Shown in pieces: positions 2,265 to 36,797 of a stretch of DNA of 64,000 bases. Positions within the stretch are counted from its first letter, which is position 1; every line of letters starts with the position of its first letter. Location of the stretch: NCBI GenBank assembly GCA_034431435.1, contig DAOUDG010000016.1:70574-134573 (forward strand). Reading direction: 5' to 3'. A program made the position numbers and the translations under genes. Origin of the DNA: Anaerolineae bacterium. Its GTDB lineage: Bacteria > Chloroflexota > Anaerolineae > Epilineales > JAHCIE01. Below the pieces are notes generated by a model, which was not told the DNA's origin, did no database searches, and worked only from the letters and a program-made list of their open reading frames with translations.

Positions 2265-2292
2265 CCGCCGCGAGTGGCGAGAGGAGGCGACG

Positions 2293-5507: not shown

Positions 5508-5509
5508 TC

Positions 5510-5661
5510 GGCCCAGGGACTTATCTCGGTAATCGTGACCAAGGCTACCTGAGTCACCCAGCGGTGGCTGCTTACGGCTGCTCCCTTCCGGTCCTGACCG
5601 GGTTCACAGGCCGCTGCCGCTCAGGGCCCCCGTCCGTATTACCGAGATAAGCGCCTGGGCC
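5510..5661 (-). ncRNA. ffs: Signal recognition particle RNA (4.5S RNA, ffs)
   Basis: Minus-strand transcript contains CCCGGUCAGGACCGGAAGGGAGCAGCCGUAAGCAG, matching the universally conserved SRP domain IV core (GGUCAGGUCCGGAAGGAAGCAGCC). The termini pair (GGCCCAGG...CUUAUCUCGGUAAU with AUUACCGAGAUAAG...CCUGGGCC), giving the long closing helix of SRP RNA. Not detectable from the ORF track. Confidence 0.75.
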
Positions 5662-5665
5662 GATG

Positions 5666-5756
5666 TGGCGGAGAGGGGGGGATTTGAACCCCCGAGGGCT
5701 TTTGACCCAACACGATTTCCAGTCGTGCGCACTAGACCAGACTATGCGACCTCTCC
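5666..5756 (-). tRNA. tRNA-Ser (anticodon GGA), encoded CCA, long variable arm
   Basis: Reverse complement reads GGAGAGGTCGCATAGTCTGGTCTAGTGCGCACGACTGGAAATCGTGTTGGGTCAAAAGCCCTCGGGGGTTCAAATCCCCCCCTCTCCGCCA. Anticodon loop CTGGAAA, long extra arm, T-loop GGTTCAAATCC. Confidence 0.85.
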
Positions 5757-5849
5757 GTGGCGATGGCGCGCTCAATTATAGGCCGTGGACGCCGCTGCGT
5801 CAATCCATCGTCCGCCTGGCACTCATTCGACGCCTGGGTGTGACCCGTC

Positions 5850-6728
5850 TTACGCGGTCGGCGCGTCTGTGACGGGTCGCGTCGCTTCGAAGTCGGCGCG
5901 CTCCGCGCTCACGTCCACCTCGGGCATATGCTGTTCCACCACACGGAGCGTCTCGCCGATGAGGCTGTCGAGAACCGCGACGGCCTCGGCGGGCGGCCGG
6001 CGGAAGACGTCGGCCAGCCGCGCCGCCAGGTTGGGCGGGGCGATGGTCAGCTCGGCGGCCAGGCGATTCATCCAGCGGAAGCCCAGGTGTGGCAGGTAGA
6101 CGCGGTTCAAACCCATCAGGCTGAGCAGGATCGCCTTCTCGGCCTGCACGAAGTCGTCGTACAGGAGCAGGCGGTCGTCGCGGTATAGCATCTTCTGGCG
6201 CGCCCAGCGCGAGCGGAAGCCCAGATGCTCGCGGACCATCGCCTCCGCCAGGCCGTCGGGGTAGTCGGCGACCACCGCCCGCCACGCTGCGATGAGGTCG
6301 CCGCCGTGCAGGGGCAGGGCGTACTGGATGATGGCGATGAGGTCCTGCTTGACCAGCGCGGTATCGTAGCCCTCCACCACATCAGCCAGCCATTGCTCCG
6401 TCGCGACCACCAGGCGGTGGCTGACCTGGAACTCGATGCCCGCCACATGGACATCGTCCGACCACTCGGCGTTCTCGTCGTCATAGGGGTACAGGGTGGT
6501 GAGCGTGCCGACCTGGGCCGCGGCTGCGCGGCGCGCCTCATCGCGCGGCGCAGCGTCCCAGAAGACGGTCATTTCCACGTCGGAGAAGCGGTCGGCCCAA
6601 CCCCGTGCCACCGACCCGGCCAGTAGCACGGCCCGCACCCCCGGCAGGGCCGCGTAGGCGGGTGCGACACACTCCGCCAGGGCCAGCCGCCAGGCGCAGG
6701 CAGAATTGCGGTCGGCACGCTCGGCCAT
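5850..6728 (-). CDS. Nucleotidyltransferase-domain protein (Pol-beta-like NTase plus C-terminal helical domain)
   Basis: LLAGSVARGWADRFSDVEMTVF resembles the minimal NTase fold motif GS...D.E. Start ATG at 6728 overlaps the TGA of the upstream GNAT gene (TGATG), suggesting translational coupling. The track ORF extends to 6743. Confidence 0.5.
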   Translation of the reverse strand: MAERADRNSACAWRLALAECVAPAYAALPGVRAVLLAGSVARGWADRFSDVEMTVFWDAAPRDEARRAAAAQVGTLTTLYPYDDENAEWSDDVHVAGIEFQVSHRLVVATEQWLADVVEGYDTALVKQDLIAIIQYALPLHGGDLIAAWRAVVADYPDGLAEAMVREHLGFRSRWARQKMLYRDDRLLLYDDFVQAEKAILLSLMGLNRVYLPHLGFRWMNRLAAELTIAPPNLAARLADVFRRPPAEAVAVLDSLIGETLRVVEQHMPEVDVSAERADFEATRPVTDAPTA

Positions 6729-9686: not shown

Positions 9687-11336
9687 ATGATCCGCCGCAG
9701 TCTCCCGCTGGCCCTGCTCACGGGCCTCATGCTGGCCCTGGCCGCCGCCCACGCGCCCGCCGCCAGCGCCGACTCCCCCATGTACCGCGCCTTCTGGGTC
9801 GATGCCTTCCACGATGGCATCAAGACCCCCGCCCAGGTCGACCGGCTCATCGCCGACCTGGACGCGGCCAACATGAACGCCATCGTCGTCCAGGTCGTGC
9901 GTCGCGGTGACTGCTACTGCAACCACGCCACCGCGCCCCGTACCCAGGACCCGCTGGTGACGCCCGGCTTCGACCCGCTGGCCTACCTGATCGAGAAGGC
10001 CCACGCGGCCAATCCCCCCATCGAGGTCCACGCCTGGATCATCGCCACCGCGATTTGGAACTCGGCGACCCCGCCCCTCGACCCCAGCCACGTCTTCAAC
10101 ACCCACGGCCCGACGGCAACGGGCCGCGACATGTGGCTGATGGTCCGCTCGGACGGCACGACGCGCCTGGGCAGCGACTGGTACGTCGACCCCGGCCACC
10201 CAGACGCCGCCGCCTACATCGCCAGCATCGCCACCAGCATCGTCCAGAACTACGACGTGGATGGCATCAACCTCGACCGCATCCGCTATCCCGACTCCAC
10301 TGTCGCCGGGCGGAGTTGGAGCTACAACCCGACCGCCGTCGCCCGCTTCAATGCCCGCTATGGCCGCACCGGGACACCCGACAACAGCGACCCCGACTGG
10401 CAGCAGTGGCGGCGTGACCAGGTGACGAGTCTCGTCCGCCGCATCTACCTGGCGACTACGGCCATCAAGCCGACGGTCAAGGTCAGCGCCGACACCATCA
10501 CTTACGGCTACGGCCCGACGACCTGGGCCGAGTGGCTCGCCAGCCGCACCTACAGTGAAGTCTATCAGGACTGGGTCGGCTGGATGGGCGAGGGCATTCT
10601 CGACCTCAACATCCCCATGAACTACAAGCGCGAGCACCTGGCCGCCAACTCACCCGCCGCCTGCGGCGGCAATCAGCAGCTCATGTTCGGCCAGTGGGAC
10701 GCCTGGGCCAGGGCGCAGCTGGGCGCGCGGCAGATGATTATGGGCAACGCGGCCTACCTCAACTACACCGAGAACACGGTGCGCCAGTTCCGCCAGTCCC
10801 TGACGCCCGATGCTGGCGGCCGCGCCGCCGTCGGTGTGGCCGCCTACTCCTACGGTGCGCCGGCCTTCAAGCCCGACCCGCCGACACGGGACTGCGGCGG
10901 CGTGACAGTGCCCCACGGCACGACCGTCGATAGCAACACCAACGTCGCCGAGGCCGACGCCTTCCGCGCCCAGCTGTCACAGCAGTTGACGACCGCTGAT
11001 CCCGACGGCCAGCCGCCGCTGTTCGCCGCGCCCGCCGCCATCCCCGCCATGCCCTGGAAGGAGACGCCCAGCCAGGGCCACCTGATGGGCTTCGTCAGCC
11101 GCCACGGCGAGGCGACCGAGAATCTCTTCGTTCAGATCATCAGCCTGCCCGGTAATCACATCGTCAGGACGGTCCAGACGGAGGCCAACGGCTTCTTCGG
11201 CGTCGTCGGCCTGACGCCAGGCGACTACCGCATCGTCACCTACGCCGACCCGTGGGATCCGCAAGCGTTTCCGCGCCGCCTGATCCGCCACGTCCACATC
11301 ATGGCGGGCCAGGTGGAGACGGTAACCTTCGAGTAG
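9687..11336 (+). CDS. Secreted glycoside-hydrolase-like GHL10 (DUF187, YngK-like) protein with C-terminal carboxypeptidase-regulatory-like beta-sandwich
   Basis: ATG 9687 preceded by a strong RBS AAGGAGG (9675-9681). Signal peptide MIRRSLPLALLTGLMLALAAAHAPAASA. FWVDAFHDG and NAIVVQV motifs match GHL10. C-terminal GDYRIVTYADPWD resembles CarboxypepD_reg. Confidence 0.6.
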   Translation: MIRRSLPLALLTGLMLALAAAHAPAASADSPMYRAFWVDAFHDGIKTPAQVDRLIADLDAANMNAIVVQVVRRGDCYCNHATAPRTQDPLVTPGFDPLAYLIEKAHAANPPIEVHAWIIATAIWNSATPPLDPSHVFNTHGPTATGRDMWLMVRSDGTTRLGSDWYVDPGHPDAAAYIASIATSIVQNYDVDGINLDRIRYPDSTVAGRSWSYNPTAVARFNARYGRTGTPDNSDPDWQQWRRDQVTSLVRRIYLATTAIKPTVKVSADTITYGYGPTTWAEWLASRTYSEVYQDWVGWMGEGILDLNIPMNYKREHLAANSPAACGGNQQLMFGQWDAWARAQLGARQMIMGNAAYLNYTENTVRQFRQSLTPDAGGRAAVGVAAYSYGAPAFKPDPPTRDCGGVTVPHGTTVDSNTNVAEADAFRAQLSQQLTTADPDGQPPLFAAPAAIPAMPWKETPSQGHLMGFVSRHGEATENLFVQIISLPGNHIVRTVQTEANGFFGVVGLTPGDYRIVTYADPWDPQAFPRRLIRHVHIMAGQVETVTFE

Positions 11337-11345
11337 CGTCTGAGA

Positions 11346-11369
11346 GCCGCGGCTGGGGCCAGCCGCGGC
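11346..11369 (+). terminator. GC-rich hairpin downstream of the GHL10 gene (GCCGCGGCTGG-gg-CCAGCCGCGGC)
   Basis: Perfect 11-bp inverted repeat 10 nt after the stop codon. No U-tract, so an intrinsic terminator is tentative. Confidence 0.3.
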
Positions 11370-11458
11370 GAGCGACTGCCTTCCCGCGCCCGCTATGTCG
11401 CCACGCCCCGTCGTTGACCCGTGCCCGGCGCGGTGCTATACTACGTTCGGGAGCCAGC

Positions 11459-12013
11459 ATGCGCGTGAGAGTGGGGCATGGCGTCATCGAGCTAGTCCAG
11501 GGTGACATCACCCGCGAGACCACCGACGCCATCGTGGACGCCGCCAACACCGCCCTCGTGCCTGGCGGCGGGGTCGATGGCGCGATAACCCGCGCCGCGG
11601 GGCCAATCGCCCTGGCCGCCCGCCAACAACTCGGTGGTTGCGCCACGGGCGACGCGAAGATTGGCCCTGGTGGCGACTTGCCTGCGCGCTACATTATCTA
11701 CGCGGTCGGGCCGGTCTATCGCGGCGGTGGAGGCGGCGAGGCCGCGTTGCTGGCGAGCGCGTATCGTCGCAGCCTCGAAGTCGCCGCCGCGCACGGACTG
11801 GGTAGTGTGGCCTTCCCGGCCATCAGTACCGGTATCTACGGCTACCCGATGGCCGAGGCGGCCGACGTCGCCCTGGCTGTCATTGCTGCGCACATGGGCC
11901 AGCACGCACAGCCCAGCCGGGTGCGCATCGTCCTCTTTGATAGTGACGCCTATGCCACCTGGTCCACTGCGCTCCGCAAACCCCAACAGGGTTGGACATG
12001 GCAGCCAGGGTAG
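11459..12013 (+). CDS. Macro-domain protein (O-acetyl-ADP-ribose deacetylase / ADP-ribose binding, YmdB-like)
   Basis: 184 aa. VQGDITRETTDAIVDAANTALVPGGGVDGAI and AFPAISTGIYGYP are canonical macro-domain motifs. Confidence 0.75.
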   Translation: MRVRVGHGVIELVQGDITRETTDAIVDAANTALVPGGGVDGAITRAAGPIALAARQQLGGCATGDAKIGPGGDLPARYIIYAVGPVYRGGGGGEAALLASAYRRSLEVAAAHGLGSVAFPAISTGIYGYPMAEAADVALAVIAAHMGQHAQPSRVRIVLFDSDAYATWSTALRKPQQGWTWQPG

Positions 12014-12072
12014 CCCAACCATCACGAGCGTTACGTGCATTCTGTCTAGCCTCTTAGCCCGAGGAGGGGTCC

Positions 12073-13755
<1,683 letters not shown>

Positions 13756-24084: not shown

Positions 24085-24927
24085 ATGCACACCAACACTA
24101 CCCTGGCCACCCGTGTCCTGACCCTGCCGGCTGGCTGCCTTGCCTATGAGGACAGCGGCGGACCGGGGCCACTGGTCGTCGCCATCCCCGGCCTCGGCGA
24201 CGTGCGCCAGGAGTACCGCTTCCTCGCCCCGCGTCTCATCGCGGCGGGCTACCGCGTCGTGACCCTGGACTTGCGCGGCCACGGCGAGTCGAGCGTCGGC
24301 TGGCCTGACTACCTCACCCAGAGCGTCGGCGCTGACATCCTCGCCCTGGTGGAGAGTCTGAACGCGGGACCGGCCCTGCTCATCGGCACATCAATGGCCG
24401 GCGGCGCGATCGCCTGGGCCGCTGCCGAGCGCCCCGATCGGGTGGTGGGGCTGGTCCTCATCAACCCCTTCGTTCGCCCGCTGCCAGGCTCAGTCGTTCA
24501 GACCCTGATGGTCAAGACCCTCATGCGTCGCCCCTGGGGACCGACTGCCTGGGGCTACTACTACCAGACCCTCTACCCCACCCAGCGCCCCGCCGACTTC
24601 GACCGCTACAAGGCGGCCCTAGTTGCCAACCTCAAGCAGCCGGGCCGCTTCGAGGCCGCGGTGGCGATGATGAACGACGATAAGGCGGCCATCGAGCCGC
24701 GACTGGGGGAGGTGCACGCGCCGGCCCTGGTACTTATGGGCAGCGAGGACCCCGACTTTCCCGACCCTCTCGCCGAGGGGCGTCTCGTCGCCGAGCGGCT
24801 GCACGGCGCGATGGATGTCATCGATGGCGCGGGCCACTATCCCCACGTCGAGTTCCCCGAGCCAACGGCGGCGCGCACCCTGGCCTTCCTGGCTGAGGCG
24901 CGCGAGGCGGCGTTGCATGGCGTCTAG
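24085..24927 (+). CDS. Alpha/beta-fold hydrolase
   Basis: 280 aa. HG oxyanion region (VVAIPGLGDV), nucleophile elbow GTSMAGG, and a C-terminal GHYPHVE histidine. Confidence 0.65.
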   Translation: MHTNTTLATRVLTLPAGCLAYEDSGGPGPLVVAIPGLGDVRQEYRFLAPRLIAAGYRVVTLDLRGHGESSVGWPDYLTQSVGADILALVESLNAGPALLIGTSMAGGAIAWAAAERPDRVVGLVLINPFVRPLPGSVVQTLMVKTLMRRPWGPTAWGYYYQTLYPTQRPADFDRYKAALVANLKQPGRFEAAVAMMNDDKAAIEPRLGEVHAPALVLMGSEDPDFPDPLAEGRLVAERLHGAMDVIDGAGHYPHVEFPEPTAARTLAFLAEAREAALHGV

Positions 24928-25498
24928 GGCGCGGCTGAACAGGGCGGCGGTGGTGCGCGCGGCGGTGGCGCTGGCCGATAGCGAGGGCCTGGAGGCAGTG
25001 ACATTGACGCGGCTGGCTGCCGAGCTGGGTGTGCGCCCGCCCTCCCTCTACAACCATGTCGCAGGGCAGGAAGGCATCCGTCACGAGTTGGCTCTGTATG
25101 GGGTGCGCGAACTGGGGCGGCGGCTAGAGCGGGCAGCGGTGGGCAAGTCGAGGGATGAGGCGCTACGCGCGGTGGCCCACGCCTACCGCGCCTTCGCTCA
25201 CGAGCATCCCCGCCTGTACGCGGCGACGCTGCGCGCCCCCACGCCGGACGATGCCGAGCTGCGCGCGGTCAGCGAGGATCTGCTGGCCGTCATCGCCGCC
25301 ATCTTCGCAGGCTTCGGCCTGGCCGGCGACGACGCGCTGCACGCCACCCGCGCCCTGCGCAGCCTCACCCACGGCTTCGTCGCCATGGAAGCAGCGGGCG
25401 GCTTCGGCCTGCCCCTCGACCTGGACGAGAGCTACCACCGCCTGGTGGACATCTTCATCGCTGGTCTGCACGCGACAGGCCCGCCAGGGCGACCCTGA
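24917..25498 (+). CDS. TetR/AcrR family transcriptional regulator
   Basis: N-terminal HTH (VTLTRLAAELGVRPPSLYNHV) and a TetR_C-like C-terminal domain. ATG 24917 overlaps the end of the hydrolase gene. Confidence 0.65.
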   Translation: MASRARLNRAAVVRAAVALADSEGLEAVTLTRLAAELGVRPPSLYNHVAGQEGIRHELALYGVRELGRRLERAAVGKSRDEALRAVAHAYRAFAHEHPRLYAATLRAPTPDDAELRAVSEDLLAVIAAIFAGFGLAGDDALHATRALRSLTHGFVAMEAAGGFGLPLDLDESYHRLVDIFIAGLHATGPPGRP

Positions 25499-25526
25499 CG
25501 GCGGCGATCCTGGGCCTGTCGCCGCC

Positions 25527-26726
25527 CTAGCGCATCCGCCCCTTGAGGCTCCACGTCAGCCCGAACAGGGCGACACCACTGACGCCGACCATCAGCAGCG
25601 CCGCCTGGAGCGAGAACAGCTCGGCAATCCAGCCGATAATGGGCGACCAGATGACGAAGCTAGTATAACAGGCGGCCATCATCGCCCCCGCGACGGCCCC
25701 GCTATGGTCCGGCATCGCCTGGGCGGCCGCGCTCAGCACCGTCGGTACCACGCCGGCCACCGCGACGCCCAGTACCACGAAGGCCAAGACGGCCATGGGC
25801 ACGCCGCCGGGGATAAACAGCAACCCATTGGCGACCACCAGCAGCACCGCCGAGGTCAGCAGGGACGTCAGCACGCCGCGCCGCTGTACCAGCGAGGCGT
25901 TGCCGATGCGGCCAACAAACATGGCGGCGTTGAACAGGGCGAAGGCCAGACCGCCGACGACCACCGCTGCCCCCAGGTCGCGCAGGTAGATGACCGAGTA
26001 GACGTTGGCGACCGTCTCGGCCAGCGGGCCAATGATGGCGATAAGAGCCAGCGTCATCATCACTCGCCCGCTGAACAGAATCTTGATGGTATCGGCCGGG
26101 CGAGACTTCTCGCGACCGTCCAGGGTGGGCGGGAAGCGGGTCGGCAGCGTGGCGAGGAAGACAAGCACCGCGAACACCGCCAGCAGCGTGAGTACCTGCT
26201 GGTACGTCCAGCCCCAGCCGCGTAGCAGGCCCGCGCCCAGCGCGCCGAGCACCGCCCCGCCGCTGTAGCCGGCGTGCATGTAGTTCATGGCATGGCGGCC
26301 CGTCGCTCGCTCCCAGTCCAGCGTCCCCCCATTGACCGAGATCTCCATCAGGCCATTGGCCACACCCGCGACCACCAGGCCCGCTACCAGTCCAGCCAGC
26401 CCGCCCGCCGCCGCCAGGGCCAGGACGGCCGCGCCCTCCAGAGCGATCGACATGAGACCCAGGCGCTTCTTGCCGCCCCACGCCGACAGCGACGCGCCGA
26501 AGAGCAGGATGACCACCGCCACCAGGGGCGACACGAGCTGCGCCGTGCCGAACACACCCAGGCTGATGCCCAGGGCAGGCACGATGTCTGCCCACAACAC
26601 GCCCAACGAGCCGATGATAAGGCCAAGCAGCAGAAAGAAGCTGATAAACAACGAGAAGACGACGCCGGGATGCCACTCCGACCGCGCGACACGAGAAACG
26701 CTCATATCATCCCTTTTGACAATCAT
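25527..26726 (-). CDS. MFS transporter
   Basis: About 12 predicted hydrophobic helices across 399 aa. Alternative start at 26705. Confidence 0.65.
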   Translation of the reverse strand: MIVKRDDMSVSRVARSEWHPGVVFSLFISFFLLLGLIIGSLGVLWADIVPALGISLGVFGTAQLVSPLVAVVILLFGASLSAWGGKKRLGLMSIALEGAAVLALAAAGGLAGLVAGLVVAGVANGLMEISVNGGTLDWERATGRHAMNYMHAGYSGGAVLGALGAGLLRGWGWTYQQVLTLLAVFAVLVFLATLPTRFPPTLDGREKSRPADTIKILFSGRVMMTLALIAIIGPLAETVANVYSVIYLRDLGAAVVVGGLAFALFNAAMFVGRIGNASLVQRRGVLTSLLTSAVLLVVANGLLFIPGGVPMAVLAFVVLGVAVAGVVPTVLSAAAQAMPDHSGAVAGAMMAACYTSFVIWSPIIGWIAELFSLQAALLMVGVSGVALFGLTWSLKGRMR

Positions 26727-26788
26727 CGAATTTCGCCGATACTAGCGTCACCGTATTATAGCACAGCCTCCACTTTTCGCGGCTCCGC

Positions 26789-27541
26789 ATGTACCAGGTC
26801 ACCTTTCGCTTCTATGCTGAATTGAACGACTTCCTCCCGTCGCAGCGCGGTCGAGACGTCGTCTATCGCTTCGCGCGCCGCGCTTCGGTCAAGGACGCCA
26901 TCGAGGCCCTCGGCGTGCCCCACACCGAGGTCGATCTCATTCTGGTCAACGGCGTGTCCGTCGATTTCGCCTATCGCATCCAGCCCGGTGACCGCATCAG
27001 CGTCTACCCCATCTTCGAGACCATCGACATCACGCCCCTGGTTCGCCTGCGGCCCCGCCCCTTGCGCGAGCCGCGTTTCGTTCTGGACGTGCACCTGGGC
27101 AAGCTGGCGACCTACCTGCGCTTGCTCGGTTTCGACTGCCTCTACAGCAACGACGCCCACGATAGCGACCTGGCGCGCACTTCCAGCCAGGAGAACCGCA
27201 TCCTCCTCACCCGCGACCGGGGCCTGCTCAAACGTGGCGAAGTCAGCCACGGCTACTTCGTGCGCGCCATCGAGCCACTCGCCCAGACCATCGAGGTCGC
27301 GCGCCGCTTCGACCTGTTCGACACAGTCCAACCCTTCCACCGCTGTGTGCGCTGCAACGGCCTGGTCACAGCGGCCCCAAAGGCTACGGTGCTGGACCAG
27401 CTGCTGCCCAAGACCCGCCTGTACTTTGACGAGTTCCACCGCTGCGAGGCGTGCGGGCGCGTCTACTGGCGCGGCTCCCACTATGAGCGCATGCGACGCA
27501 TCATCGACATGGTACAGGCAGCGCGACCATCCGACGGGTGA
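26789..27541 (+). CDS. Mut7-C RNase-domain protein with N-terminal ubiquitin-like (Ub-Mut7C, MoaD-fold) domain and C-terminal zinc ribbon
   Basis: N-terminal MYQVTFRFYAELNDFLP...GDRISVYP beta-grasp. Central PIN-like Mut7-C region (ILLTRDRGLLKRG). C-terminal CVRCNG...CEACGR zinc ribbon. Confidence 0.6.
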   Translation: MYQVTFRFYAELNDFLPSQRGRDVVYRFARRASVKDAIEALGVPHTEVDLILVNGVSVDFAYRIQPGDRISVYPIFETIDITPLVRLRPRPLREPRFVLDVHLGKLATYLRLLGFDCLYSNDAHDSDLARTSSQENRILLTRDRGLLKRGEVSHGYFVRAIEPLAQTIEVARRFDLFDTVQPFHRCVRCNGLVTAAPKATVLDQLLPKTRLYFDEFHRCEACGRVYWRGSHYERMRRIIDMVQAARPSDG

Positions 27542-27640
27542 ACACATCGTTCCGCCGGGTGAAGCCTTCTGCCACGCTATCAACCCCCCGCTTGTCGTAT
27601 ACTGCTATACTGAGGGAGAATCCCTCGGGAGGCAGCTATT

Positions 27641-29851
27641 ATGAAGCAGATTCTGGTCATTGACCTCAACCACGGCGACGAGACGTCGCCGGTCAAGGTA
27701 TTGGGATACGAGATGGAAATTCGGCGCGTCGGTTCGGGCGGTGATCCGGATCGCGTGCGCGCCCTCATCGCCGAGAACGACGGTCAGGTGGATGTCATCG
27801 CCCTGGAAGGCATGCCTGCCACGCTGCAACTCGGCCCGGCCCGCCGCCCCCACGCCGTCGGCGCATCGCTGCGCGAGGTGGCCCAGGTCACGCCGGTCAT
27901 CGACGGCTCTGGCATCCGCGACGGCATCTCGCGCTGGGGCATCATTCTGGCCGACCGCGCCCAGCCAGGCATCTTCGCCCAGAAGCGCATCCTGATGACG
28001 CCCGGCCTCAATCACATGGGCATGGCCCAGGCGCTCACCCGCCGCAGCGCGGATGTGCGCTACGCCGACCCCATTGTCTATTTCGCCCTGCCCGACGCGC
28101 CCGGTGTCGGCAGCAAGACCACCCTCGAGCAGGCGGCCGGCCCGACCCTGGAGCAACTCAAGGACGCCCCCTTCCGCCGCCTCAACCCGCAGCTCGGCCA
28201 CCCTGGTACGCCCCGCGCGGAGCACCCCTTCGAGTGGGCCGACGTGCTGGCGGGCGATATCAACACCATTCGCCGCTACGCTCCGCCGCTCCTGCGCCGC
28301 AAGACCATTGTCGTCGAGTCGGCCCAGGAAGAGGACCTTGACGACATGCGGCGGCGCGGCGCGTCCATCGTCGTGACGCTGATGCCGTCCCTCGAAGCAA
28401 AGGGTAGCCTGGGCCGCTGGTCGCCCGCCGTCATCGAGGGCGTGCTGGTCGCGGCGCGCTCCGACCCCAATCTGCCCCTCAACGAGGACACCTACCTCGA
28501 CCTCATGGCGGGATTGGACTGGACGCCCCACATCCGCTATTTGCAGCCCGACGAGGTAGGCATCAACAAGTTTGCCTTCGTCATCCACCCCCTGGACGTG
28601 AGCTTCATCCGCAGCCACCCCATGCTGCATTGGACACGCTATCTACCGGACGAGGTCGTCGAGACCACGGCGGCATATATGCCGCCTCTCTTCGTCGGTA
28701 AGATCACCGGCGGCCAGTCGCCCGCGACCGGCCAGAAGATCGAGGGCTATCTCATCTCCCTTGGGGCGACCCCGCGCCAGATGCTAAAGCACGACGAGAA
28801 GTTCACCTACGAGCGACTGAATCAGGCGGCCAAGATGTCAGAGCGGCTGGGCGCGCGCATCATGGGCCTCGGCGCGTTCACCTCGGTCGTGGGTGATGCG
28901 GGCATCACCGTCGCCCACGAGACCGACATTGCCATCACCAGCGGCAACAGCCTGACGGTGGCGGCGACCCTGGAGGCGGCCAAGCAGGCCGTCATCAAGA
29001 TGGGCGCGACCGACCTGACCCAGGGCAAGGCCATGATCATCGGCGCGACTGGCTCCATCGGCTCGGTGTGCGCCCGTCTCATCGCCCAGGCCATCGGCAA
29101 CGTGGTACTCGTATCCATCGAGCCGGAGCGCCTCATCGACTTGAAGCGCACCATCGAAGCCGAGACGCCCGGCGCCCAGGTCACCATCTCCACCACGGCC
29201 GGTGACCTGTCCACCGACTGTGACCTCATCGTGACCGCCACATCCGCCTTCGGTCAGCGCATCATCGATATCACCCGCTGCAAGCCGGGCGCGGTCATCT
29301 GCGACGTGGCTCGCCCGCCCGACATCAACCCCGCCGAGGCCGCCCTACGCCCCGACGTGCTGGTCATCGAGAGCGGCGAGGTGCGCATCCCCGGCGACAT
29401 CGACATCACCTATCCCATCGGCCTGCCGCCCAAGACCGTCTACGCCTGCCTGGCCGAGACATCGCTGCTGGCGATGGAGGGGCGCTTCGAGGACTACACC
29501 CTGGGCCGCAACATCACCATGGAGCGCGTCAAGGAGATCTATCACCTGTTCAAGAAGCACGACTATCAGCTGGCCGGGCTGCGCTCCTTCGGTAAGTACA
29601 TCACCGACGAGGACGTGGCCGCCAAGCGCGCCCTGGCCGAGGAGCTACGCAACGACCCCGAGCGGTTCGCCCAGGTCAAGGCCGAGGCGAGCGCGAAGCT
29701 GGCCGACATCCCCATCATGGCAAAGGGCGTCAAGGCCAGCAACGGCTCGACGCTGAAGAAGGTCGCCGTGCCCGTCGCCGCCGCCACCGCTGCCACCGCC
29801 GCCGCCGTCGCTGTCACGCGCCGCCGGCGGACGAAAGAACCTGCCTCGTAG
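27641..29851 (+). CDS. Two-module protein: uncharacterized ~310-aa N-terminal domain fused to an acyl-ACP-reductase (AAR)-like NAD(P)-binding reductase domain, with an Ala/Thr-rich hydrophobic tail and RRRR at the C-terminus
   Basis: Residues ~312-700 align by eye with cyanobacterial AAR: [137 protein letters not shown] cannot assign the N-terminal 310 aa to any family from memory. Confidence 0.55.
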
Positions 29852-29870
29852 CCGGACAGGCGCGCACACG

Positions 29871-29928
29871 ATTTACAGGATGAACAGGATTGCAGGTAAT
29901 ATTCTGTTCTTGTTCGTCCTGTAAATCC
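29871..29928. repeat. Nested inverted repeat in an AT-rich intergenic spacer (GATTTACAGGA ... TCCTGTAAATC, inner GAACAG/CTGTTC)
   Basis: 11-bp perfect arms at 29871-29881 and 29918-29928, separated by 36 nt that contain a second palindromic pair. Local AT content is far above the window average. Confidence 0.5.
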
Positions 29929-29951
29929 TGTCTGGCCTCTTCGTGGTCGCC

Positions 29952-31067
29952 ATGCGCGTATTGATGCTGTCCAAGGCCCTCGTCGTCGGCGCGTACCAGC
30001 GCAAGGTCGAGGAGCTGGCCGCCCTGCCCGACGTAGACCTGACCGTGGTCGTGCCGCCTGCCTGGCGCGAGGGCACGACCACGCTGACTCTCGACCGCGC
30101 CTACACCCACGGCTACCGCCTGGTGGTCGAGCCGCTGCGCTTCAACGGTCGCCATCACGTCCATACCTACCCCGGCCTGGGTCGCCGTCTGGACGAGGCG
30201 CGCCCCGACATCCTCCACATCGACGAGGAACCCTACAACCTCGTCACGGGCCACACCCTGTGGCTCGCCCAGCGGCGCGGCATCCCGGCCCTCTTCTTCA
30301 CCTGGCAGAACATCCTGCGCCAGTACCCGCCGCCGTTCCGTCTCATCGAGCGCTATAGCTACCGCACCGCGCGCCACGCCCTGGCTGGCAACCGCGAGGC
30401 GGCCGACGTGCTGCGCGCCAAGGGCTACCGCGGCCCCGTCAGCGTCATTCCCCAGTTCGGTGTCGATCCGGAACAGTTCAAGCCTGCCCAGCGCGACGGC
30501 GACGGTCCCTTCCGTATCGGCTATCTGGGGCGTTGGGAGCCGTACAAGGGCGTGGACCTGCTGCTGGACGCAGCGGCCGGGCTGCCCGATGACTGGCGTG
30601 TCGAGCTACGCGGTGGCGGCTCGGCCGGTGACGCCCTGCGCGCCCAGGCCGCGCGCCTCGGCATCGCCGACCGCGTCGACTTCGCTCCCTACGCGCCCTC
30701 TACCGACGTGCCGCGCTACATGGCCCGCCTGGACGCGCTGATCCTCCCGTCGCGGACGACGGCGTCGTGGAAGGAGCAGTTTGGCCGCGTGCTCATTGAG
30801 GCGATGGCCAGCGGCGTGCCGGTGGTGGGGTCGGATAGCGGGGAGATCCCGAATGTCATCGGCGACGCGGGGCTGATCTTCCCCGAAGGCGATGCGCTCG
30901 CCCTGCGCGAGCGCCTGGCGCGGCTCATGGCCGACGCCGCCCTACGGCGCGACCTGGCCGCCCGCGGCCGCGCCCGCGTCCTGGCCCACTACACCCACGC
31001 ACAGATCGCCCGCGAGACGTGGCAGGTGTACCAGACGCTGCTGGAGGCCCCTTCTCCCCCTGGGTGA
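29952..31067 (+). CDS. Glycosyltransferase family 4
   Basis: GT4 C-terminal motif (IEAMASGVPVVGSDSGEIPNVIGDAGLIF). ATG 29952, with an alternative GTG at 29943. Confidence 0.65.
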   Translation: MRVLMLSKALVVGAYQRKVEELAALPDVDLTVVVPPAWREGTTTLTLDRAYTHGYRLVVEPLRFNGRHHVHTYPGLGRRLDEARPDILHIDEEPYNLVTGHTLWLAQRRGIPALFFTWQNILRQYPPPFRLIERYSYRTARHALAGNREAADVLRAKGYRGPVSVIPQFGVDPEQFKPAQRDGDGPFRIGYLGRWEPYKGVDLLLDAAAGLPDDWRVELRGGGSAGDALRAQAARLGIADRVDFAPYAPSTDVPRYMARLDALILPSRTTASWKEQFGRVLIEAMASGVPVVGSDSGEIPNVIGDAGLIFPEGDALALRERLARLMADAALRRDLAARGRARVLAHYTHAQIARETWQVYQTLLEAPSPPG

Positions 31068-31082
31068 GGGTCCTGGCGTCGC

Positions 31083-32009
31083 CTACTTCTTCTTTTTCTT
31101 CTCTGGCTGGGGTTGGGGAGTCGGGGGGGGTGTGGGGGTCGGGGTAGCTTCGATCTCCGCGACGGCGCGGCTGGCGGCGTAGTCCGTGTGAACAGGCACG
31201 TAAGGCAGGCCTTCCCAGTCCCGCTGCATCTGCTCGTAGACGGCGGTTGCCATCCACGCTGAGCCTGCCCACGTCAGATGCACACCATCATTGGAACGAA
31301 CCTGCATCCATTCACCGTCTCGATTGGGCAGCGAGCCAGCGTATTCGCCATTGTCGTCGGTGAAGAGCGGCCAGACATCCACCACATGCACCCAGGGGCG
31401 GCTGGCGGCGGCCTGCTGGATGGCCTCGTTGACCAGAACCATCGTCTCGTTGCGGAAGGGGTCAGCCATGCTCGGCGCGCTGACCCAGTACATCACCGCG
31501 CCGCCCTGGTGGGCCAGGTCCATCATGTAGCCTGCGCGGTCGATGTACTCTTGCTGCCAGCCCGGTGTGCCCACGTGGACCACGCGGCCGTCGCGGCGCA
31601 TAGTCAAGATATCGTTCGTGCCCAGCGAGACGACGAGCGCCTCTGGCCCTTGTGTGGCCAGGAGATAGCTAAGGCGCGACGGCCAGTCGAAGTAGGGGGG
31701 GTAGGCAAGGCCCGAACCGACGCGGAAATCGCGCGTGACGCGCAGCATGCCGTCGTGCCGCGCGAGGCCCACCATCGCGGTGGCGAGGGGGCCAGCGAGC
31801 GAGTCGCCGACAATGAGCACATTCAGCGGCGCGGCGGGGGACACGTCGCGGCCGAAAAAGGCAACGGGGGCGGGGGGTGGGCCTTCGGCGGCGGCCGGGA
31901 CGGCCGCGAGGCCGGCCAACAGGGCCAACGCAGCCACCAGGAGCGCGCAGAGCGCGATGAGGGACGCCGACGGCCGTATCTGTGCGGCGGGACGATGCGG
32001 GTCAGGCAT
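31083..32009 (-). CDS. Secreted SGNH/GDSL-family hydrolase with Pro/Thr-rich linker and C-terminal penta-lysine tail
   Basis: Signal peptide from ATG 32009 (MPDPHRPAAQIRPSASLIALCALLVAALALLAGLAAVPAAA). VLIVGDSLAG nucleophile motif, and VSLGTNDI block II. C-terminus is TPTPTPPPTPQPQPEKKKKK. Confidence 0.6.
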   Translation of the reverse strand: MPDPHRPAAQIRPSASLIALCALLVAALALLAGLAAVPAAAEGPPPAPVAFFGRDVSPAAPLNVLIVGDSLAGPLATAMVGLARHDGMLRVTRDFRVGSGLAYPPYFDWPSRLSYLLATQGPEALVVSLGTNDILTMRRDGRVVHVGTPGWQQEYIDRAGYMMDLAHQGGAVMYWVSAPSMADPFRNETMVLVNEAIQQAAASRPWVHVVDVWPLFTDDNGEYAGSLPNRDGEWMQVRSNDGVHLTWAGSAWMATAVYEQMQRDWEGLPYVPVHTDYAASRAVAEIEATPTPTPPPTPQPQPEKKKKK

Positions 32010-32136
32010 GGCTGGTATTGTACCCCCATCGCGGCGCGCGGGCAAGTGACGGAGTCGTTCGGCCTTCCCGCTTGGGGCGATTCGGCGGTATACTTGGGCC
32101 ATTCGCGCCCACCTTCTCGACCAGCGAGGACTCACC

Positions 32137-33471
32137 ATGACCGCGCCTGTTGACGCCGCCGCGCGCCCCTGGGTGCCCGGCCCCCTTGAGACTGCCATCC
32201 AGGAGCGCGCAGCCACCTACCGCACCCTGGACGCCGATGCCGTCGAGGCCGAGGTCCACCGCCTCCTCGACGACCACGAACGCTACATGGACCACGAGTG
32301 CATCAGCCTGTATGCGGGGACCAACGTCATGAACCCACGGGCGGTGCGTCTCCTGGCGACCAGCGTCGGTAGCCGCCCCAGCCTCGGCTACCCCGGCGAC
32401 AAGTACGAGATGGGCATGCAATATGCCGAGCAGCTCGAAATCCTGGCCGCCGAGGTGCTCAAGGACCTGTTCCACGCCCGCTACGTTGAGTATCGCGTTG
32501 GCAGCGGCTCCCTCGCCAACCTGTACGCCTACATGGTCTGTGCGCGCCCCGGCGACCTGATGCTGGCCTTCCCGCCAGAAGCGGCCGGTCACGTCGGCCA
32601 TCACGAGGGCGGCGCGGCCGGGTTGTACGGGCTGGACGTACGCACTGTCCCCTTCGACGGCCGGCGCATGGCCGTCGACCTGGACGGCCTGGCCCGCGAG
32701 GCGCGGGCGTTGAAGCCCAAGATTATCATGGTCGCAGGCAGCATGTGCCTGTTCCCCTACGACGTGCCCGCCGTGCGCGCGATTGCCGACGAGGTCGGCG
32801 CGTATGTGGTATACGACGCGGCCCATATGTCGGGCCTCATCGCCAGCGGCGCGTTCCAGCAGCCCCTGGCCGAGGGCGCGCACCTACTGACTTGCTCAAC
32901 GTATAAGTCCTTCGGTGGCCCGCCATCGGGCCTGGTGCTCACCAACGACGCCGAGCTGGCCCAGCGGCTCGAGTATGTCGCCTACCCCGGCATGACGGCT
33001 AACTTTGACCTGAGCAAGACGGCGGCGCTGATTGTCGCGGCCCTGGACCTGCGCGAGCATGGCCCGGCCTATGCTCAGATGTGCATCGACAACGCCGTAG
33101 CCCTGGCGACCGCTCTGGACGCCAAGGGCGTGCCGGTGTATCACGTCGAGGGACGGGGCTTTACGGCCAGCCAGCACGTCGGCCTGCCCGCCCAACGTTA
33201 CGGCGGCGGCACGCCCGGCTCGCGCCTTCTCGAGCGCGCCAACATCCTGGTCAGCGGCATCGGGCTGCCGGGGCCGACATGTCCGAATGATTTCAACGCC
33301 ATCCGCATCGGCACCCAGGAGGTCACCCGCTGGGGCATGACGCCCGACAGCATGGTCGAGGTGGCGAAGCTGATGGCCCGCGTCCTGGTCGGCGGTGGCG
33401 ACCCGGCCGCCGTGCGCGAGGACGTGATCGCCCTGCGGCGCAACTACCAGACGCTGCACTACCTTCGCTAG
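32137..33471 (+). CDS. Serine hydroxymethyltransferase-family PLP enzyme (divergent)
   Basis: SHMT family landmarks are present but altered: LYAGTNVMN (vs LIASENYTS), GYPGDKYEMG (vs GYPGKRYYGG), and TCSTYKSFGGPPSG with the PLP lysine (vs TTTTHKTLRGPRGG). Confidence 0.6.
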   Translation: MTAPVDAAARPWVPGPLETAIQERAATYRTLDADAVEAEVHRLLDDHERYMDHECISLYAGTNVMNPRAVRLLATSVGSRPSLGYPGDKYEMGMQYAEQLEILAAEVLKDLFHARYVEYRVGSGSLANLYAYMVCARPGDLMLAFPPEAAGHVGHHEGGAAGLYGLDVRTVPFDGRRMAVDLDGLAREARALKPKIIMVAGSMCLFPYDVPAVRAIADEVGAYVVYDAAHMSGLIASGAFQQPLAEGAHLLTCSTYKSFGGPPSGLVLTNDAELAQRLEYVAYPGMTANFDLSKTAALIVAALDLREHGPAYAQMCIDNAVALATALDAKGVPVYHVEGRGFTASQHVGLPAQRYGGGTPGSRLLERANILVSGIGLPGPTCPNDFNAIRIGTQEVTRWGMTPDSMVEVAKLMARVLVGGGDPAAVREDVIALRRNYQTLHYLR

Positions 33472-33658
33472 CCGCGCGCCTCTACGTAGGGGGCGGGCCG
33501 CTGTCTGCGTGGTACAATGCCCAGGGAACTGAGGTGGGTCGCGCTGCTACGGAACTGATGGCCAGTGTCCGTCTCGACCAGGTCACAGGCTCAAATTGCG
33601 CCATAACGAATGGCGCTGCATTTCCCCACCGCCGAGGATTCAGCCATAGGAGGCACAT

Positions 33659-34084
33659 ATGAACAAGGAAACTCTGATCCAACGCCTGAACGAAGACTTG
33701 GCCGGCGAGCTGGGGGCCATTATCCAGTACATCACCTACGCCGCCAAGGCCACCGGGCCGTATCGCCCCCAATTGTCTCAGTTCTTCCTGACCGAGGTGG
33801 CCGACGAGCAGCTGCACGCCCAGTTCCTCGCCAACAAGATCGTCGCCCTGGGCGGCGAGCCGACCACCACACCGCGCCCCGTGCCCGCTGCACGCACCAA
33901 TCGCGAGATGCTGGAGGCGGTGCTGGTCGCCGAGCGCCAGGCGACCCGCGACTACTCGCAGCGCGCCGACGAAGCGGCCGAGTACGGCGACAAGGGCTTG
34001 CAGGTGCAGTTGGAGGACATGGTGCGCGACGAGAGCGGCCACTCCGAGGAGACCGAGCGCATCCTGCGCGACTGGCCGCTGTAG
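33659..34084 (+). CDS. Ferritin-like domain protein (bacterioferritin/rubrerythrin-like four-helix bundle)
   Basis: 141 aa. E...EQLH and E...H spacing fits a ferritin-like di-metal site (EVADEQLHAQ...ESGHSEETE). RBS AGGAGG 7 nt upstream. Confidence 0.55.
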   Translation: MNKETLIQRLNEDLAGELGAIIQYITYAAKATGPYRPQLSQFFLTEVADEQLHAQFLANKIVALGGEPTTTPRPVPAARTNREMLEAVLVAERQATRDYSQRADEAAEYGDKGLQVQLEDMVRDESGHSEETERILRDWPL

Positions 34085-34143
34085 ATTTCGCTCGCCCGCT
34101 CGTCTTGAAAAGGCGGGCGCATGTGGTATAATCAGAAGTTGTT

Positions 34144-35373
34144 ATGGAAGGTTCTACCCGGCGGCGAGGACCAGGCGTGGCCTCGCCACGCCCGCGTATC
34201 GGCCTGAGCGCGCATCTGCTGTCCCTATCGGAGGACTACCGAGGCGCGGGTATCAACCGCTACATCTACGGGCTGCTGACCCACCTACCCGCCGCAGCGC
34301 CGCACCTGGCGTTCACGGCCTTTGTGGCCGACCGCCGCCTGGCCGACGACCCACCGAACGGCCTGGCGCTGGCTTTTCCGCGCTGGCCGACCCAGTCGCG
34401 GCGGGCGGCGCGTATCGCCTGGGAACAGGTCGCCCAGCCGCTGGCCCTACGCCGCGAGGGGGTGGACCTGGTCCACGGCTTGGCCTACGCCCTGCCCGCC
34501 CTGCGCGGGGCGCGAAGCGTGGTGACCGTCCACGACCTGACCGTCTTGCTGTATCCCGAAGCTTTCAACAGGACGAACCGCCTCTACGTGTCCACCATCA
34601 CCCGCGAGTCCGTCCGCCGCGCGGACGCCATCATTGCCGACTCCGCCAACACCCGCGCCGACATCATTCGGCTGCTGGGTGTCGCGCCGGACAGGGTCGT
34701 CGCTATTCCGCTGGGCATCGATGCCCAGTACCGTCCCGCTCCCCCCGCCGAGGTCGAGGCGTTGCGGCAGCGGTATGGCTTGCCCCCGCGTTTCATCCTC
34801 TATCTCGGCACGCTGGAACCGCGCAAGAACATCGAGACGCTGGTCAGGGCCTACGCCGCGCTCCGGCGGCAGGACCCTGCCGCGCCCCAGCTGGTCATCG
34901 CGGGTGGCGCGGGCTGGCGCTATCAGGCTGTATTTGAGTTGGTCGAAGCTCTGGGCCTGAAGGACAGGGTTCTCTTCCCCGGCTTTGTGCCCCAGGCCGA
35001 GCTACCCACCTGGTACAGTGCGGCCGAGCTGTTCGTGTATCCCTCGCGGTATGAGGGCTTCGGCCTGCCACCCCTGGAGGCGATGGCCTGCGGCGCGCCG
35101 GTCATCACCTCCACCGCTTCATCGCTGCCAGAGGTCGTCGGCGACGCGGGCATGCAGGTCGAGGCGACGGACGTTGACGCGCTGGCCGAAGCCGTGCGCG
35201 GGGCGCTGGCCGACGTTGACCTGCGCGCCGACCTGCGGGCGCGGGGGCTGGCGCGGGCGGCAACCTTCACCTGGCAGCGCACCGCCCAGGCGACGGCGGC
35301 CGTGTACGATGCGGTGCTGGCGGGCCGCACCCTGCCCCACCGGGCGGCGGCCACGGCGGGGGGCGGCGCGTGA
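34144..35373 (+). CDS. Glycosyltransferase family 4
   Basis: [33 protein letters not shown] motif. Stop overlaps the start of the next gene. Confidence 0.7.
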
Positions 35374-36797
35374 ACCCCGACTTTCGCCGCCGCTGGAAGG
35401 TCGCCACTGTCATCGGCGACGCGATTCTGATTCTGGTAGGCTTTGCCCTGGCCTACTGGCTGCGCTACCACGTCCAATGGATTGAGCCGGTCGATGAGGC
35501 GAACTTCGTCGAGTTCAGCGCGTACTATGGGTCGGCGCTGCTGCTGCTGGTCATTCTGCTGCTGGCCTACAAGATCGAGGGCCTGTACGACCAGCGCCGC
35601 ACCGCGTCCTGGCTGGACTCGGTCTATCTCATCTTCAGCGGAACCGTGGTGGGTGTCGCCGCCCTCATCGTCTGGTACTTCTCCTCGCGCCCCCTGGCCG
35701 TCTCGCGCCTCATGCTCCTCTACGCCGCCGTCATCATCGTCGTGCTTGTCTCCCTCAGCCGCCTGGTAGGGGGGGCGATCCGCCGCTCGCTACACCGGCG
35801 CGGCGTCGCCACCGACCGCCTGCTCATCGTTGGGGCGGGCGAGGTCGGCCGCGCCATCATGGGCAACATCGTCGCCCAGCCGGGCCTGGGCTATCAGGTC
35901 ATCGGTTACGTCGACGATGACCCCGAGAAGGCCGGCGGCTCCATCGGCCGCTTCCCATCCCTCGGCACGATTGCCGATACAACTGGCGTGCTTAGGGATT
36001 ACCAGATTGACGACGTGATTATCACCCTGCCCTGGTACGCCCGCGATAGCATCCACCGCGTACTGGAAGCGTGTGAGAGGATGGGCGTCCGGACGCGCAT
36101 CGTGCCCGACATGTTTCAGATGCGCCTGAACCAGGTGCACATTGAGACCATCAACGGCATCCCGCTCATTGGCGTCCGCGACACCAACATTCGCGGCTGG
36201 AATCGCGCCGTCAAGCGCGGCCTGGACGTGGCGCTGGCCTCGCTGGCCGTCCTCGTCACCTCACCCATCATGGCGCTCGTCGCAGCCGCCATCAAGCTCG
36301 ACTCGCCGGGGCCGGTCCTGTATCGACAGACACGGGTGGGCATGAATGGCCACGAATTCACGGTCTACAAGTTCCGCTCGATGCGTGTTGACGCCGACCA
36401 GGAGCTTGTCAAGCTCCAGGCTCACAACGAGGCCAGCGGACCCCTGTTCAAGATGCGCGACGACCCGCGCCGCACCCGCGTCGGCCGCTTCCTGCGCCGC
36501 ACCAGCCTGGATGAGCTGCCCCAGTTCTTCAATGTCCTGCTGGGCGACATGAGCCTGGTCGGCCCACGCCCCCCCGTGCCCAACGAAGTTGAGCAGTACG
36601 ACGACTGGCATCGGCGGCGGCTCGAAGTGGCGCCCGGCATCACCGGCCTGTGGCAGGTGAGCGGCCGCAGCAACCTGACCTTCGACGAGATGGTTATGCT
36701 GGACCTGTACTACGCGGAGAACTGGTCGCTGGGCCTGGACATGAAGATTCTGCTGCGCACCATCCCCACCGTCCTCCTGGGCGATGGCGCGTACTGA
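35370..36797 (+). CDS. Polyprenyl-phosphate hexose-1-phosphate transferase (bacterial sugar transferase, WbaP/CpsE-like priming enzyme)
   Basis: N-terminal TM helices, a Rossmann-like middle, and a C-terminal Bac_transf domain with [13 protein letters not shown] and LDLYY motifs. Confidence 0.75.

Follow-up and report, generated by a model that had tools for sequence, protein, structure and literature searches.

The stretch of DNA analyzed here (the window; 64,000 nucleotides of contig DAOUDG010000016.1 from an Anaerolineae bacterium of the Chloroflexota, GenBank assembly GCA_034431435.1) carries a plus-strand open reading frame (ORF) whose product joins an N-terminal module of 306 residues to a domain related to cyanobacterial acyl-acyl carrier protein (ACP) reductase (AAR) and ends in a tail-anchor-like C-terminus. 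An initial annotation, made from the sequence alone, had proposed this three-part architecture, which is supported by the present analysis, for an ORF whose limits and length of 736 codons were recovered exactly in the ORF list. Comparison with other genomes identifies the ORF as the fusion of a conserved two-gene unit.

Full-length homologues and purifying selection establish that the ORF is a genuine gene, despite a G+C content of 64–72% in the window, at which long spurious ORFs are frequent. A protein database search returned more than 2,600 relatives of the fusion protein. The best 120 of these are nearly all 725–753 residues long (one has 699 residues and one 762) and share 68–94% identity with the query across 94–100% of its length, the best homologue reaching 94% and hundreds more lying at 69–76% over the full length. 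Compared codon by codon with locus L001 (92% identical), the differences are purely synonymous at 167 positions and non-synonymous at 65, and purifying selection is visible on the module half and the reductase half alike.

A scan of one genome per species yielded 225 loci with relatives. The best 80 of these are nearly all from Chloroflexota (Anaerolineae, Caldilineales, Ardenticatenales, Promineifilum, Ca. Amarolinea and Chloroflexales), and the closest genome locus belongs to an uncultured Anaerolineales metagenome-assembled genome (MAG; 92%). The fusion had been announced as novel and without any characterized member. No characterized member was indeed found in the libraries and literature searched; the fusion is not rare, however, but forms a widespread Chloroflexota family. 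Three homologues of near-identical architecture also occur in MAGs labelled Thermodesulfobacteriota, Calditrichaceae and Acidobacteriota (L063, L071 and L080), likely through binning contamination, or possibly through horizontal transfer.

In the C-terminal half of the protein, the sole Pfam match is a Shikimate_DH-type NAD-binding domain (residues 456–569). Among NCBIfam models, positions 1–361 (of 837) of the PigE model NF053554 match residues 310–670 (E 8e-54, 183.3 bits) and the AAR model TIGR04058 matches residues 347–643 (E 4e-20, 72.3 bits). Neither score reaches the curated equivalog cut-off (850 bits for PigE, 449.7 bits for AAR), and the class-III aminotransferase domain of PigE was not detected in the window protein with Pfam. 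The best matches among PDB sequences are PigE (4ppm, E 1e-28) and AAR (6jzq, E 2e-17), to which the reductase half is ∼31% and ∼28% identical, respectively. Judged by these sequence matches, it is closer to the PigE thioester-reductase (TR) domain than to AAR. In fold comparisons, AAR 6jzq is the top structural match (score 21.3; 324 of 340 residues aligned at 25% identity), followed by the putative terminal amidation domain (TAD) of the carmabin pathway (9e4s; 19.3) and by glutamyl-tRNA reductase (GluTR; 13.3). The two-domain layout of the AAR/PigE-TR/TAD superfamily (COG5322-type), that is an α/β N-domain and a Rossmann C-domain with the Cys in the cleft, is found in the reductase half, which is a distinct subfamily of this superfamily and no orthologue of AAR.

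The initial annotation stated that this half follows cyanobacterial AAR almost motif for motif. Proper alignment and fold comparison both uphold the homology and the catalytic motifs, with GATGSIGS in place of the GATGDIGS loop of AAR and YACLAE in place of its FACFAE block, although the wording was somewhat overstated in view of the ∼28% identity. The putative catalytic Cys603 is kept in 50 of 58 fused homologues and the glycine loop in about as many (∼50/58). Where AAR has Thr-Ala-Arg after strand β2 of the Rossmann fold, this family shows Ser-Ile-Glu (Glu494), and this replacement of the Arg of AAR hints at NADH rather than NADPH as the cofactor. A genuine cyanobacterial-type AAR serving alkane synthesis, as the top structural match might have it, is effectively refuted by the score of 72 against a cut-off of 449.7 and by the lack of a gene for aldehyde-deformylating oxygenase (ADO) among the 10 flanking genes (24085–36797). 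The absence of an ADO partner had already been recorded, as had the placement of the nearest ferritin-like ORF, of 141 codons, in another operon; this ORF encodes a generic PF00210 protein and lies amid glycosyltransferase and sugar-transferase genes.

Residues 1–306 have no match in Pfam, NCBIfam or the PDB sequences, profile search included, so that the earlier description of the N-terminal ∼310 residues as uncharacterized is borne out. An AlphaFold model of the module alone, built from an alignment of relatives, consists of two α/β lobes (predicted local distance difference test (pLDDT) 89.7; predicted template modelling score (pTM) 0.89). Its structural relatives are generic: aspartate carbamoyltransferase and glutamate dehydrogenase are among them, and the folds of periplasmic binding protein (PBP) and LacI ligand-binding domains are resembled. 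The conserved polar residues (D47, D88, R98, N124/H125, D143, D201 and D206), mostly acidic, are located in loops around the β-strands of both lobes, the majority of them directly past strand ends, which is where α/β proteins typically bind ligands. This arrangement suggests a ligand site or functional cleft between the two lobes.

The possibility that the N-terminal region is a degenerate copy of the reductase, raised in the initial annotation, was examined by aligning the profiles of both halves. Had the module arisen as an ancient AAR-like duplicate that lost its cofactor loop and Cys and now provides only a scaffold or dimerization surface, its best Foldseek TM-score (0.48), which is also to TAD, would be accounted for, as would the alignment of its β-loop-helix (residues 100–131) with the glycine-loop region of the reductase, itself non-significant. 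The hhalign profile-profile probability is nevertheless below 1%, giving no sequence support for a duplication. Moreover, the module is a well-conserved family of its own, with its own invariant polar residues, ∼60–70% conservation within Chloroflexota and a sequence that is still recognizable across phyla, which is unlike a decaying scaffold. We therefore consider a degenerate duplicate improbable.

When a profile of the module was run against 1.8 billion representative proteins, 749 matches were obtained, comprising fusions of ∼700–750 residues and many standalone proteins of 295–320 residues. Representatives of the latter are ∼22–34% identical to residues 1–306 of the window protein (profile E about 1e-27 to 1e-51), and R29, G31, D47, G57, G89, D143, P177, G205 and D206 are invariant in the standalone proteins and the window module. 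Unlike the window fusion, the standalone proteins are unfused and without anchor, and they differ from its module, as listed, in the motifs SLGSSxRD/HLNxGDE, DR/NH, TNTxT/VESA and GRSFGTN/LGRWSAA (standalone/window). They are carried by Moorella, Thermacetogenium, Caldanaerobacter, Gelria, Halanaerobiales, Negativicutes and Armatimonadota, under the source names 'quinate 5-dehydrogenase' or 'hypothetical'. Scanning seven of them revealed no Pfam or NCBIfam family and no shikimate or quinate dehydrogenase domains, and the name 'quinate 5-dehydrogenase' is a legacy misnomer for this family. Identity of the module with a true shikimate/quinate dehydrogenase (AroE/YdiB) was likewise rejected, as the combination of Shikimate_dh_N with a GxGxxG NAD(P) domain is absent.

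In five of five genomes (Moorella, Thermacetogenium, Halonatronum, Caldanaerobacter and a Chthonomonadaceae MAG), the standalone gene lies 5' of a gene for a Shikimate_DH-type protein of ∼360 residues. The two genes adjoin or overlap in the four Firmicutes; in Chthonomonadaceae ∼1.2 kb lies between them. Overlaps of 4 nt in L082, 1 nt in L086 and 8 nt in L087 indicate coupled expression of the module and reductase genes at these loci. The Moorella partner, the one product compared in this way, is 45% identical to residues 311–650 of the window protein (E 2e-96). The arrangement recurs in a set of 80 metagenome loci: an AAR-like gene directly follows the module in 40 of the 64 loci with enough downstream sequence and is found ∼2 kb off in three more. 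Strong evidence for joint action of module and reductase comes from their occurrence as a single polypeptide in Chloroflexota and as neighbouring genes in other phyla. A second acyl-thioester enzyme is joined to the module in a 762-residue protein (P0324; L090:1364–3652), seen on one 3.8-kb contig only, where an α-oxoamine synthase resembling BioF, Kbl and serine palmitoyltransferase (residues 91–435) is fused to a module (residues 474–757).

In part of the family the reductase has degenerated. The products of about 15 unfused partner genes have ∼300 residues, with a GDIPH-like sequence replacing the glycine loop and LAPILES replacing the Cys block. Likewise, 8 of 58 divergent fused proteins (P0214, P0215, P0218, P0222, P0224, P0231, P0232 and P0240) lack the Cys, and most of them also lack the glycine loop. 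The module stays conserved beside or fused to such reductases, which, going by their motifs, look like pseudo-enzyme partners. Metagenome loci of this kind (L107, e.g. 5196–6110; L125, L126, L130, L139, L149, L157 and L162) have the degenerate gene directly 3' of the module; the altered Cys block of these lineages reads LAPILES or PA(S/A)LAE, and greA and lysS still follow. The window protein, unlike these lineages, retains all catalytic motifs.

Directly 5' of the pair, three of the genomes examined (L081:7459–8004, L082:7413–7943 and L087:6472–6996) encode a protein of ∼175 residues with an XRE-like helix-turn-helix (HTH) domain and an uncharacterized C-terminal domain. Together with the pseudo-reductase partners and the PBP- and LacI-like fold of the module, the presence of a homologue of this protein in 54 of the 80 Firmicutes-type metagenome loci could point to a sensing or regulatory device, in which a ligand-binding module and an NAD(P)H-binding partner would work with the upstream HTH protein. 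We regard this as very improbable, since all catalytic motifs are retained in the window protein and in most homologues, and no HTH homologue was found near the Chloroflexota fusions; the HTH protein could, moreover, merely regulate the operon.

The C-terminal portion of this protein sets the fusion apart from the two-gene form. The alignment with the Moorella partner stops at about query residue 650, and the unfused reductases of ∼360 residues are without the helical hairpin, the linker and the hydrophobic tail, which are additions of the Chloroflexota fusion. The linker holds a short motif matching the pattern [ILMV]PxM[AS]K[GH][VI], found in 101 of 119 homologues ∼10 residues ahead of the hydrophobic tail. 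The linker is otherwise variable and modelled with low confidence (pLDDT below 50 at residues 694–702); its IPxMAKGV motif could serve at the membrane interface or in interactions. The hydrophobic stretch followed by RRRR, noted earlier as resembling a tail anchor, is confirmed and proves to be a trait of the family: 101 of 120 homologues have a hydrophobic window of 17 residues and, after it, two or more Arg or Lys residues, the tail being conserved in position and variable in sequence. In the window protein, the maximal 17-residue Kyte-Doolittle mean within the last 50 residues is 1.87, and AlphaFold2 (AF2) predicts a helix at residues 703–731. Neither a signal peptide (the N-terminus is non-hydrophobic) nor an LPXTG motif was found in the window protein, which thus has a single hydrophobic helix within ∼30 residues of its C-terminus and no signal peptide, as in tail-anchored proteins. 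A cytoplasmic, tail-anchored enzyme is therefore the sensible prediction. Export as a sortase-sorted surface protein, suggested by the label 'LPXTG-motif cell wall-anchored protein' that the Joint Genome Institute (JGI) gives to one homologue, is effectively refuted by the absence of both signals, and NAD(P)H-dependent enzymes would not function outside the cell; the label is an artefact of the shape of the tail.

Table 1. Features of the fusion gene and of its neighbourhood in the window.
Feature	Residues	Coordinates	Strand	Basis
Complete ORF, 736 aa + stop (partner module, AAR-like reductase, C-terminal anchor)	1–736	27641..29851	+	ORF list, full-length homologues
Shine-Dalgarno GGGAGG, 8 nt 5' of ATG		27627..27632	+	Direct sequence reading
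N-terminal module, two-lobed α/β; fused form of the standalone family named 'quinate 5-dehydrogenase'	1–306	27641..28558	+	AlphaFold model, profile homology
AAR/PigE-TR/TAD-type thioester reductase domain	308–655	28562..29605	+	HMM, PDB-sequence and fold matches
Nucleotide-binding loop GATGSIGS	468–475	29042..29065	+	Aligned to AAR GATGDIGS
YACLAE block, putative catalytic Cys603 (codon 29447–29449)	601–606	29441..29458	+	Aligned to AAR FACFAE
Helical hairpin after reductase core	656–687	29606..29701	+	AF2 secondary structure
Short conserved motif IPIMAKGV, low-confidence linker	690–697	29708..29731	+	Homologue pattern
Hydrophobic helix (708–726), then RRRR (727–730); putative tail anchor	708–730	29762..29830	+	Hydropathy, homologues, AF2
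α/β hydrolase		24085–24927		
TetR		24815–25498		
MFS transporter		25527–26726	-	
Mut7-C RNase (Ub-Mut7C + Mut7-C RNase domain), directly 5' of fusion		26789–27541		
GT4 glycosyltransferase		29943–31067		
DUF459/SGNH		31083–32216	-	
SHMT-like		32137–33471		
Ferritin-like, 141 aa, PF00210		33659–34084		
GT4 glycosyltransferase		34144–35373		
Sugar transferase		35370–36797		

Mut7-C and the MFS transporter, for which the initial annotation had recommended a search for conservation elsewhere, turned out, like the other flanking genes of the window, to be shared only with the nearest relatives. Mut7-C is adjacent to the fusion in just 7 of the 80 related genome loci and is for that reason probably unrelated to its function. 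Within the window, the α/β-hydrolase and TetR ORFs overlap by 113 nt (24815–24927), and TetR probably starts at a later codon. In the DUF459/SGNH protein, the C-terminus is rich in Pro and Thr and ends in EKKKKK; the A/T tract that encodes this end (∼31086–31110) is homopolymer-like and unusual against the G+C content of the window.

A coherent lipid cluster surrounds the fusion in 9 of the 80 genome loci, as well as in the Pfam-annotated L088 and L089. Upstream are genes for a phasin and a PHB_acc_N protein (divergent), with an SCP2-like gene directly 5' of the fusion in L088-type loci. Directly 3' of the fusion, a short-chain dehydrogenase/reductase (SDR) of the 3β-hydroxysteroid dehydrogenase/epimerase type and a PlsC-type acyltransferase are encoded as a tight pair (L088:12237–14637; L089:12211–14455), and patatin lipases, an AMP-binding ligase and an Fe-alcohol dehydrogenase are encoded close by. 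This gene set resembles what fatty alcohol, wax-ester or ether-lipid metabolism needs, making the region a candidate neutral- or ether-lipid cluster. None of the genes of this cluster is present in the 64-kb window.

Our preferred reading, to which we give a probability of roughly 0.45, is that the window protein is a membrane-tethered acyl-thioester reductase, dependent on Cys603 and NAD(P)H, that either passes an aldehyde on to the fused module or is supplied by it with substrate, with a role that is probably in lipid metabolism. The chemistry of the reductase half, whose fold and motifs are shown by the present analysis, would by analogy with AAR begin when Cys603 takes over the acyl group of a carrier thioester (acyl-ACP or acyl-CoA). 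A nicotinamide cofactor bound at GATGSIGS would subsequently reduce the acyl-enzyme, and the aldehyde would be released. AAR itself has a ping-pong mechanism that proceeds via a catalytic Cys (Cys294, the acyl-enzyme nucleophile), and TAD carries a Cys that is spatially equivalent to it (bioRxiv 10.1101/2024.10.28.620694). Most likely, the module would then take the aldehyde, or else deliver the substrate. This assignment is modelled on the partners of characterized reductases, namely ADO in the case of AAR, the aminotransferase domain in PigE and TamH, and glutamate-1-semialdehyde aminomutase (GSAM), which is proposed to form a complex with GluTR. For PigE, the N-domain was proposed to be a thioester reductase that feeds the aminotransferase domain of the same protein (PMC8341465). 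The C-terminal helix and basic tail would tether the enzyme to the membrane on its cytoplasmic side or to lipid bodies. Its most likely purpose would be to furnish neutral or ether lipids with fatty aldehyde or alcohol, with weak support from the gene context in a minority of genomes.

Several observations weigh against this reading. No recognizable cofactor motif was found in the module, so that its role is a guess, and the relative placement of the domains cannot be inspected in the full-length AF2 model (pLDDT 90.5, pTM 0.71, no predicted aligned error). The basic residues that follow the C-terminal helix are ambiguous with respect to topology. Loss of the Cys, and mostly of the glycine loop too, alongside a conserved module suggests that the core function of the pair may not always require reduction and could depend on the module just as much. 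Additionally, a related member of the Chloroflexota, Ca. Promineifilum breve, has an experimentally shown fatty acyl-CoA reductase of the HMG-CoA reductase (HMGR) type, FcrA (PMC11948995). Gene context adds further doubt: the 10 flanking genes of the window give no functional hint, most Chloroflexota fusion loci, this one included, have neighbours unrelated to lipids, and the Firmicutes pair is found in the order birA-coaX-dusB-[HTH]-[module]-[reductase]-greA-lysS, which has no lipid genes. Of the 80 metagenome loci, 48 carry greA, 43 lysS and 41 dusB. In a Chloroflexota contig of 7.4 Mb (L171), greA and lysS (1091–3218) lie ∼7 kb 5' of the fusion (10001–12199) on the opposite strand, which could faintly reflect the Firmicutes order or be due to chance.

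These contexts would sit well with a non-lipid housekeeping role, in which the pair reduces another activated carboxylate (a small acyl-thioester, for example, or an aminoacyl ester of the GluTR-like kind) and the module processes the aldehyde in cofactor or small-molecule metabolism. Location of the Firmicutes pair between birA-coaX-dusB and greA-lysS, the mostly non-lipid neighbours in Chloroflexota and the 69–76% identity among the listed Chloroflexota homologues, which suggests a core function, all speak for such a role. On the other hand, the sole functionally coherent context found is the lipid cluster, the membrane anchor suits a hydrophobic substrate, and the pairing of greA and lysS is a general Firmicutes arrangement that may be uninformative. 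On balance, we consider a housekeeping role rather unlikely.

Extending the lipid-linked reductase reading, module and AAR-like reductase would constitute an unrecognized two-component aldehyde-generating system of Firmicutes, Armatimonadota and Chloroflexota. The module of ∼300 residues would then be a new enzyme family that uses up the aldehyde or supplies the substrate, and the fused, membrane-tethered Chloroflexota form a new route to fatty aldehydes and alcohols for ether or wax lipids, parallel to fatty acyl reductase (FAR) and FcrA. We put this wider proposal forward as a possibility, with the odds against it.

AAR-type reductases have so far been studied as cyanobacterial alkane-pathway enzymes and as domains of secondary-metabolite enzymes. 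The same catalytic scaffold is now seen in hundreds of Chloroflexota, where the fused form is very strongly conserved, and in many Firmicutes, with one dedicated partner family. The reductase superfamily is known, while no description of the partner module, the fusion or the anchor was found in the libraries and literature searched. Knowing the function of the pair would annotate two sizeable families, misnamed 'serine carboxypeptidase' and 'quinate 5-dehydrogenase', and would add an aldehyde-forming biocatalyst; for the abundant bacteria of wastewater and soil, it could also bring to light a new source of lipid aldehydes or alcohols. The fusion, for its part, is useful evidence that two Firmicutes genes cooperate.

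Among the systems with which the window protein can be compared, cyanobacterial AAR (6JZQ, TIGR04058) shares the catalytic Cys block and the GATGDIGS-type loop. Unlike AAR, the window protein has a 306-residue N-terminal module, an additional helical hairpin and a membrane anchor, and it has no ADO partner. The thioester-reductase domain of the PigE/TamH/KecF type (NF053554; PMC8341465, PMC9594044) matches the reductase half best by sequence, and enzymes of this type share the principle of fusion with the window protein, the fused domain of PigE using the aldehyde. In those enzymes, however, the fused partner is an aminotransferase dependent on pyridoxal phosphate (PLP), whereas that of the window protein is an unrelated α/β module in N-terminal position. 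Moreover, PigE functions in a secondary-metabolite cluster, in contrast to the widely conserved single gene of Chloroflexota described here. The TAD of CarI from the carmabin pathway (9E4S; bioRxiv 10.1101/2024.10.28.620694) ends modules of a nonribosomal peptide synthetase (NRPS) and takes its substrate from a fused peptidyl carrier protein (PCP), while the window protein has no carrier domain. Finally, the fatty acyl reductases of wax-ester and ether-lipid synthesis (FAR/Acr, ElbD, and FcrA of Ca. Promineifilum; PMC11948995) may share its physiological niche, judging from the subset of homologues located near genes for a PlsC-type acyltransferase, SDR, Fe-alcohol dehydrogenase, FadD-like ligase, patatin, SCP2 and phasin. 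These reductases belong to unrelated protein families of the SDR or HMGR type, whereas the window protein resembles the aldehyde-releasing AAR type.

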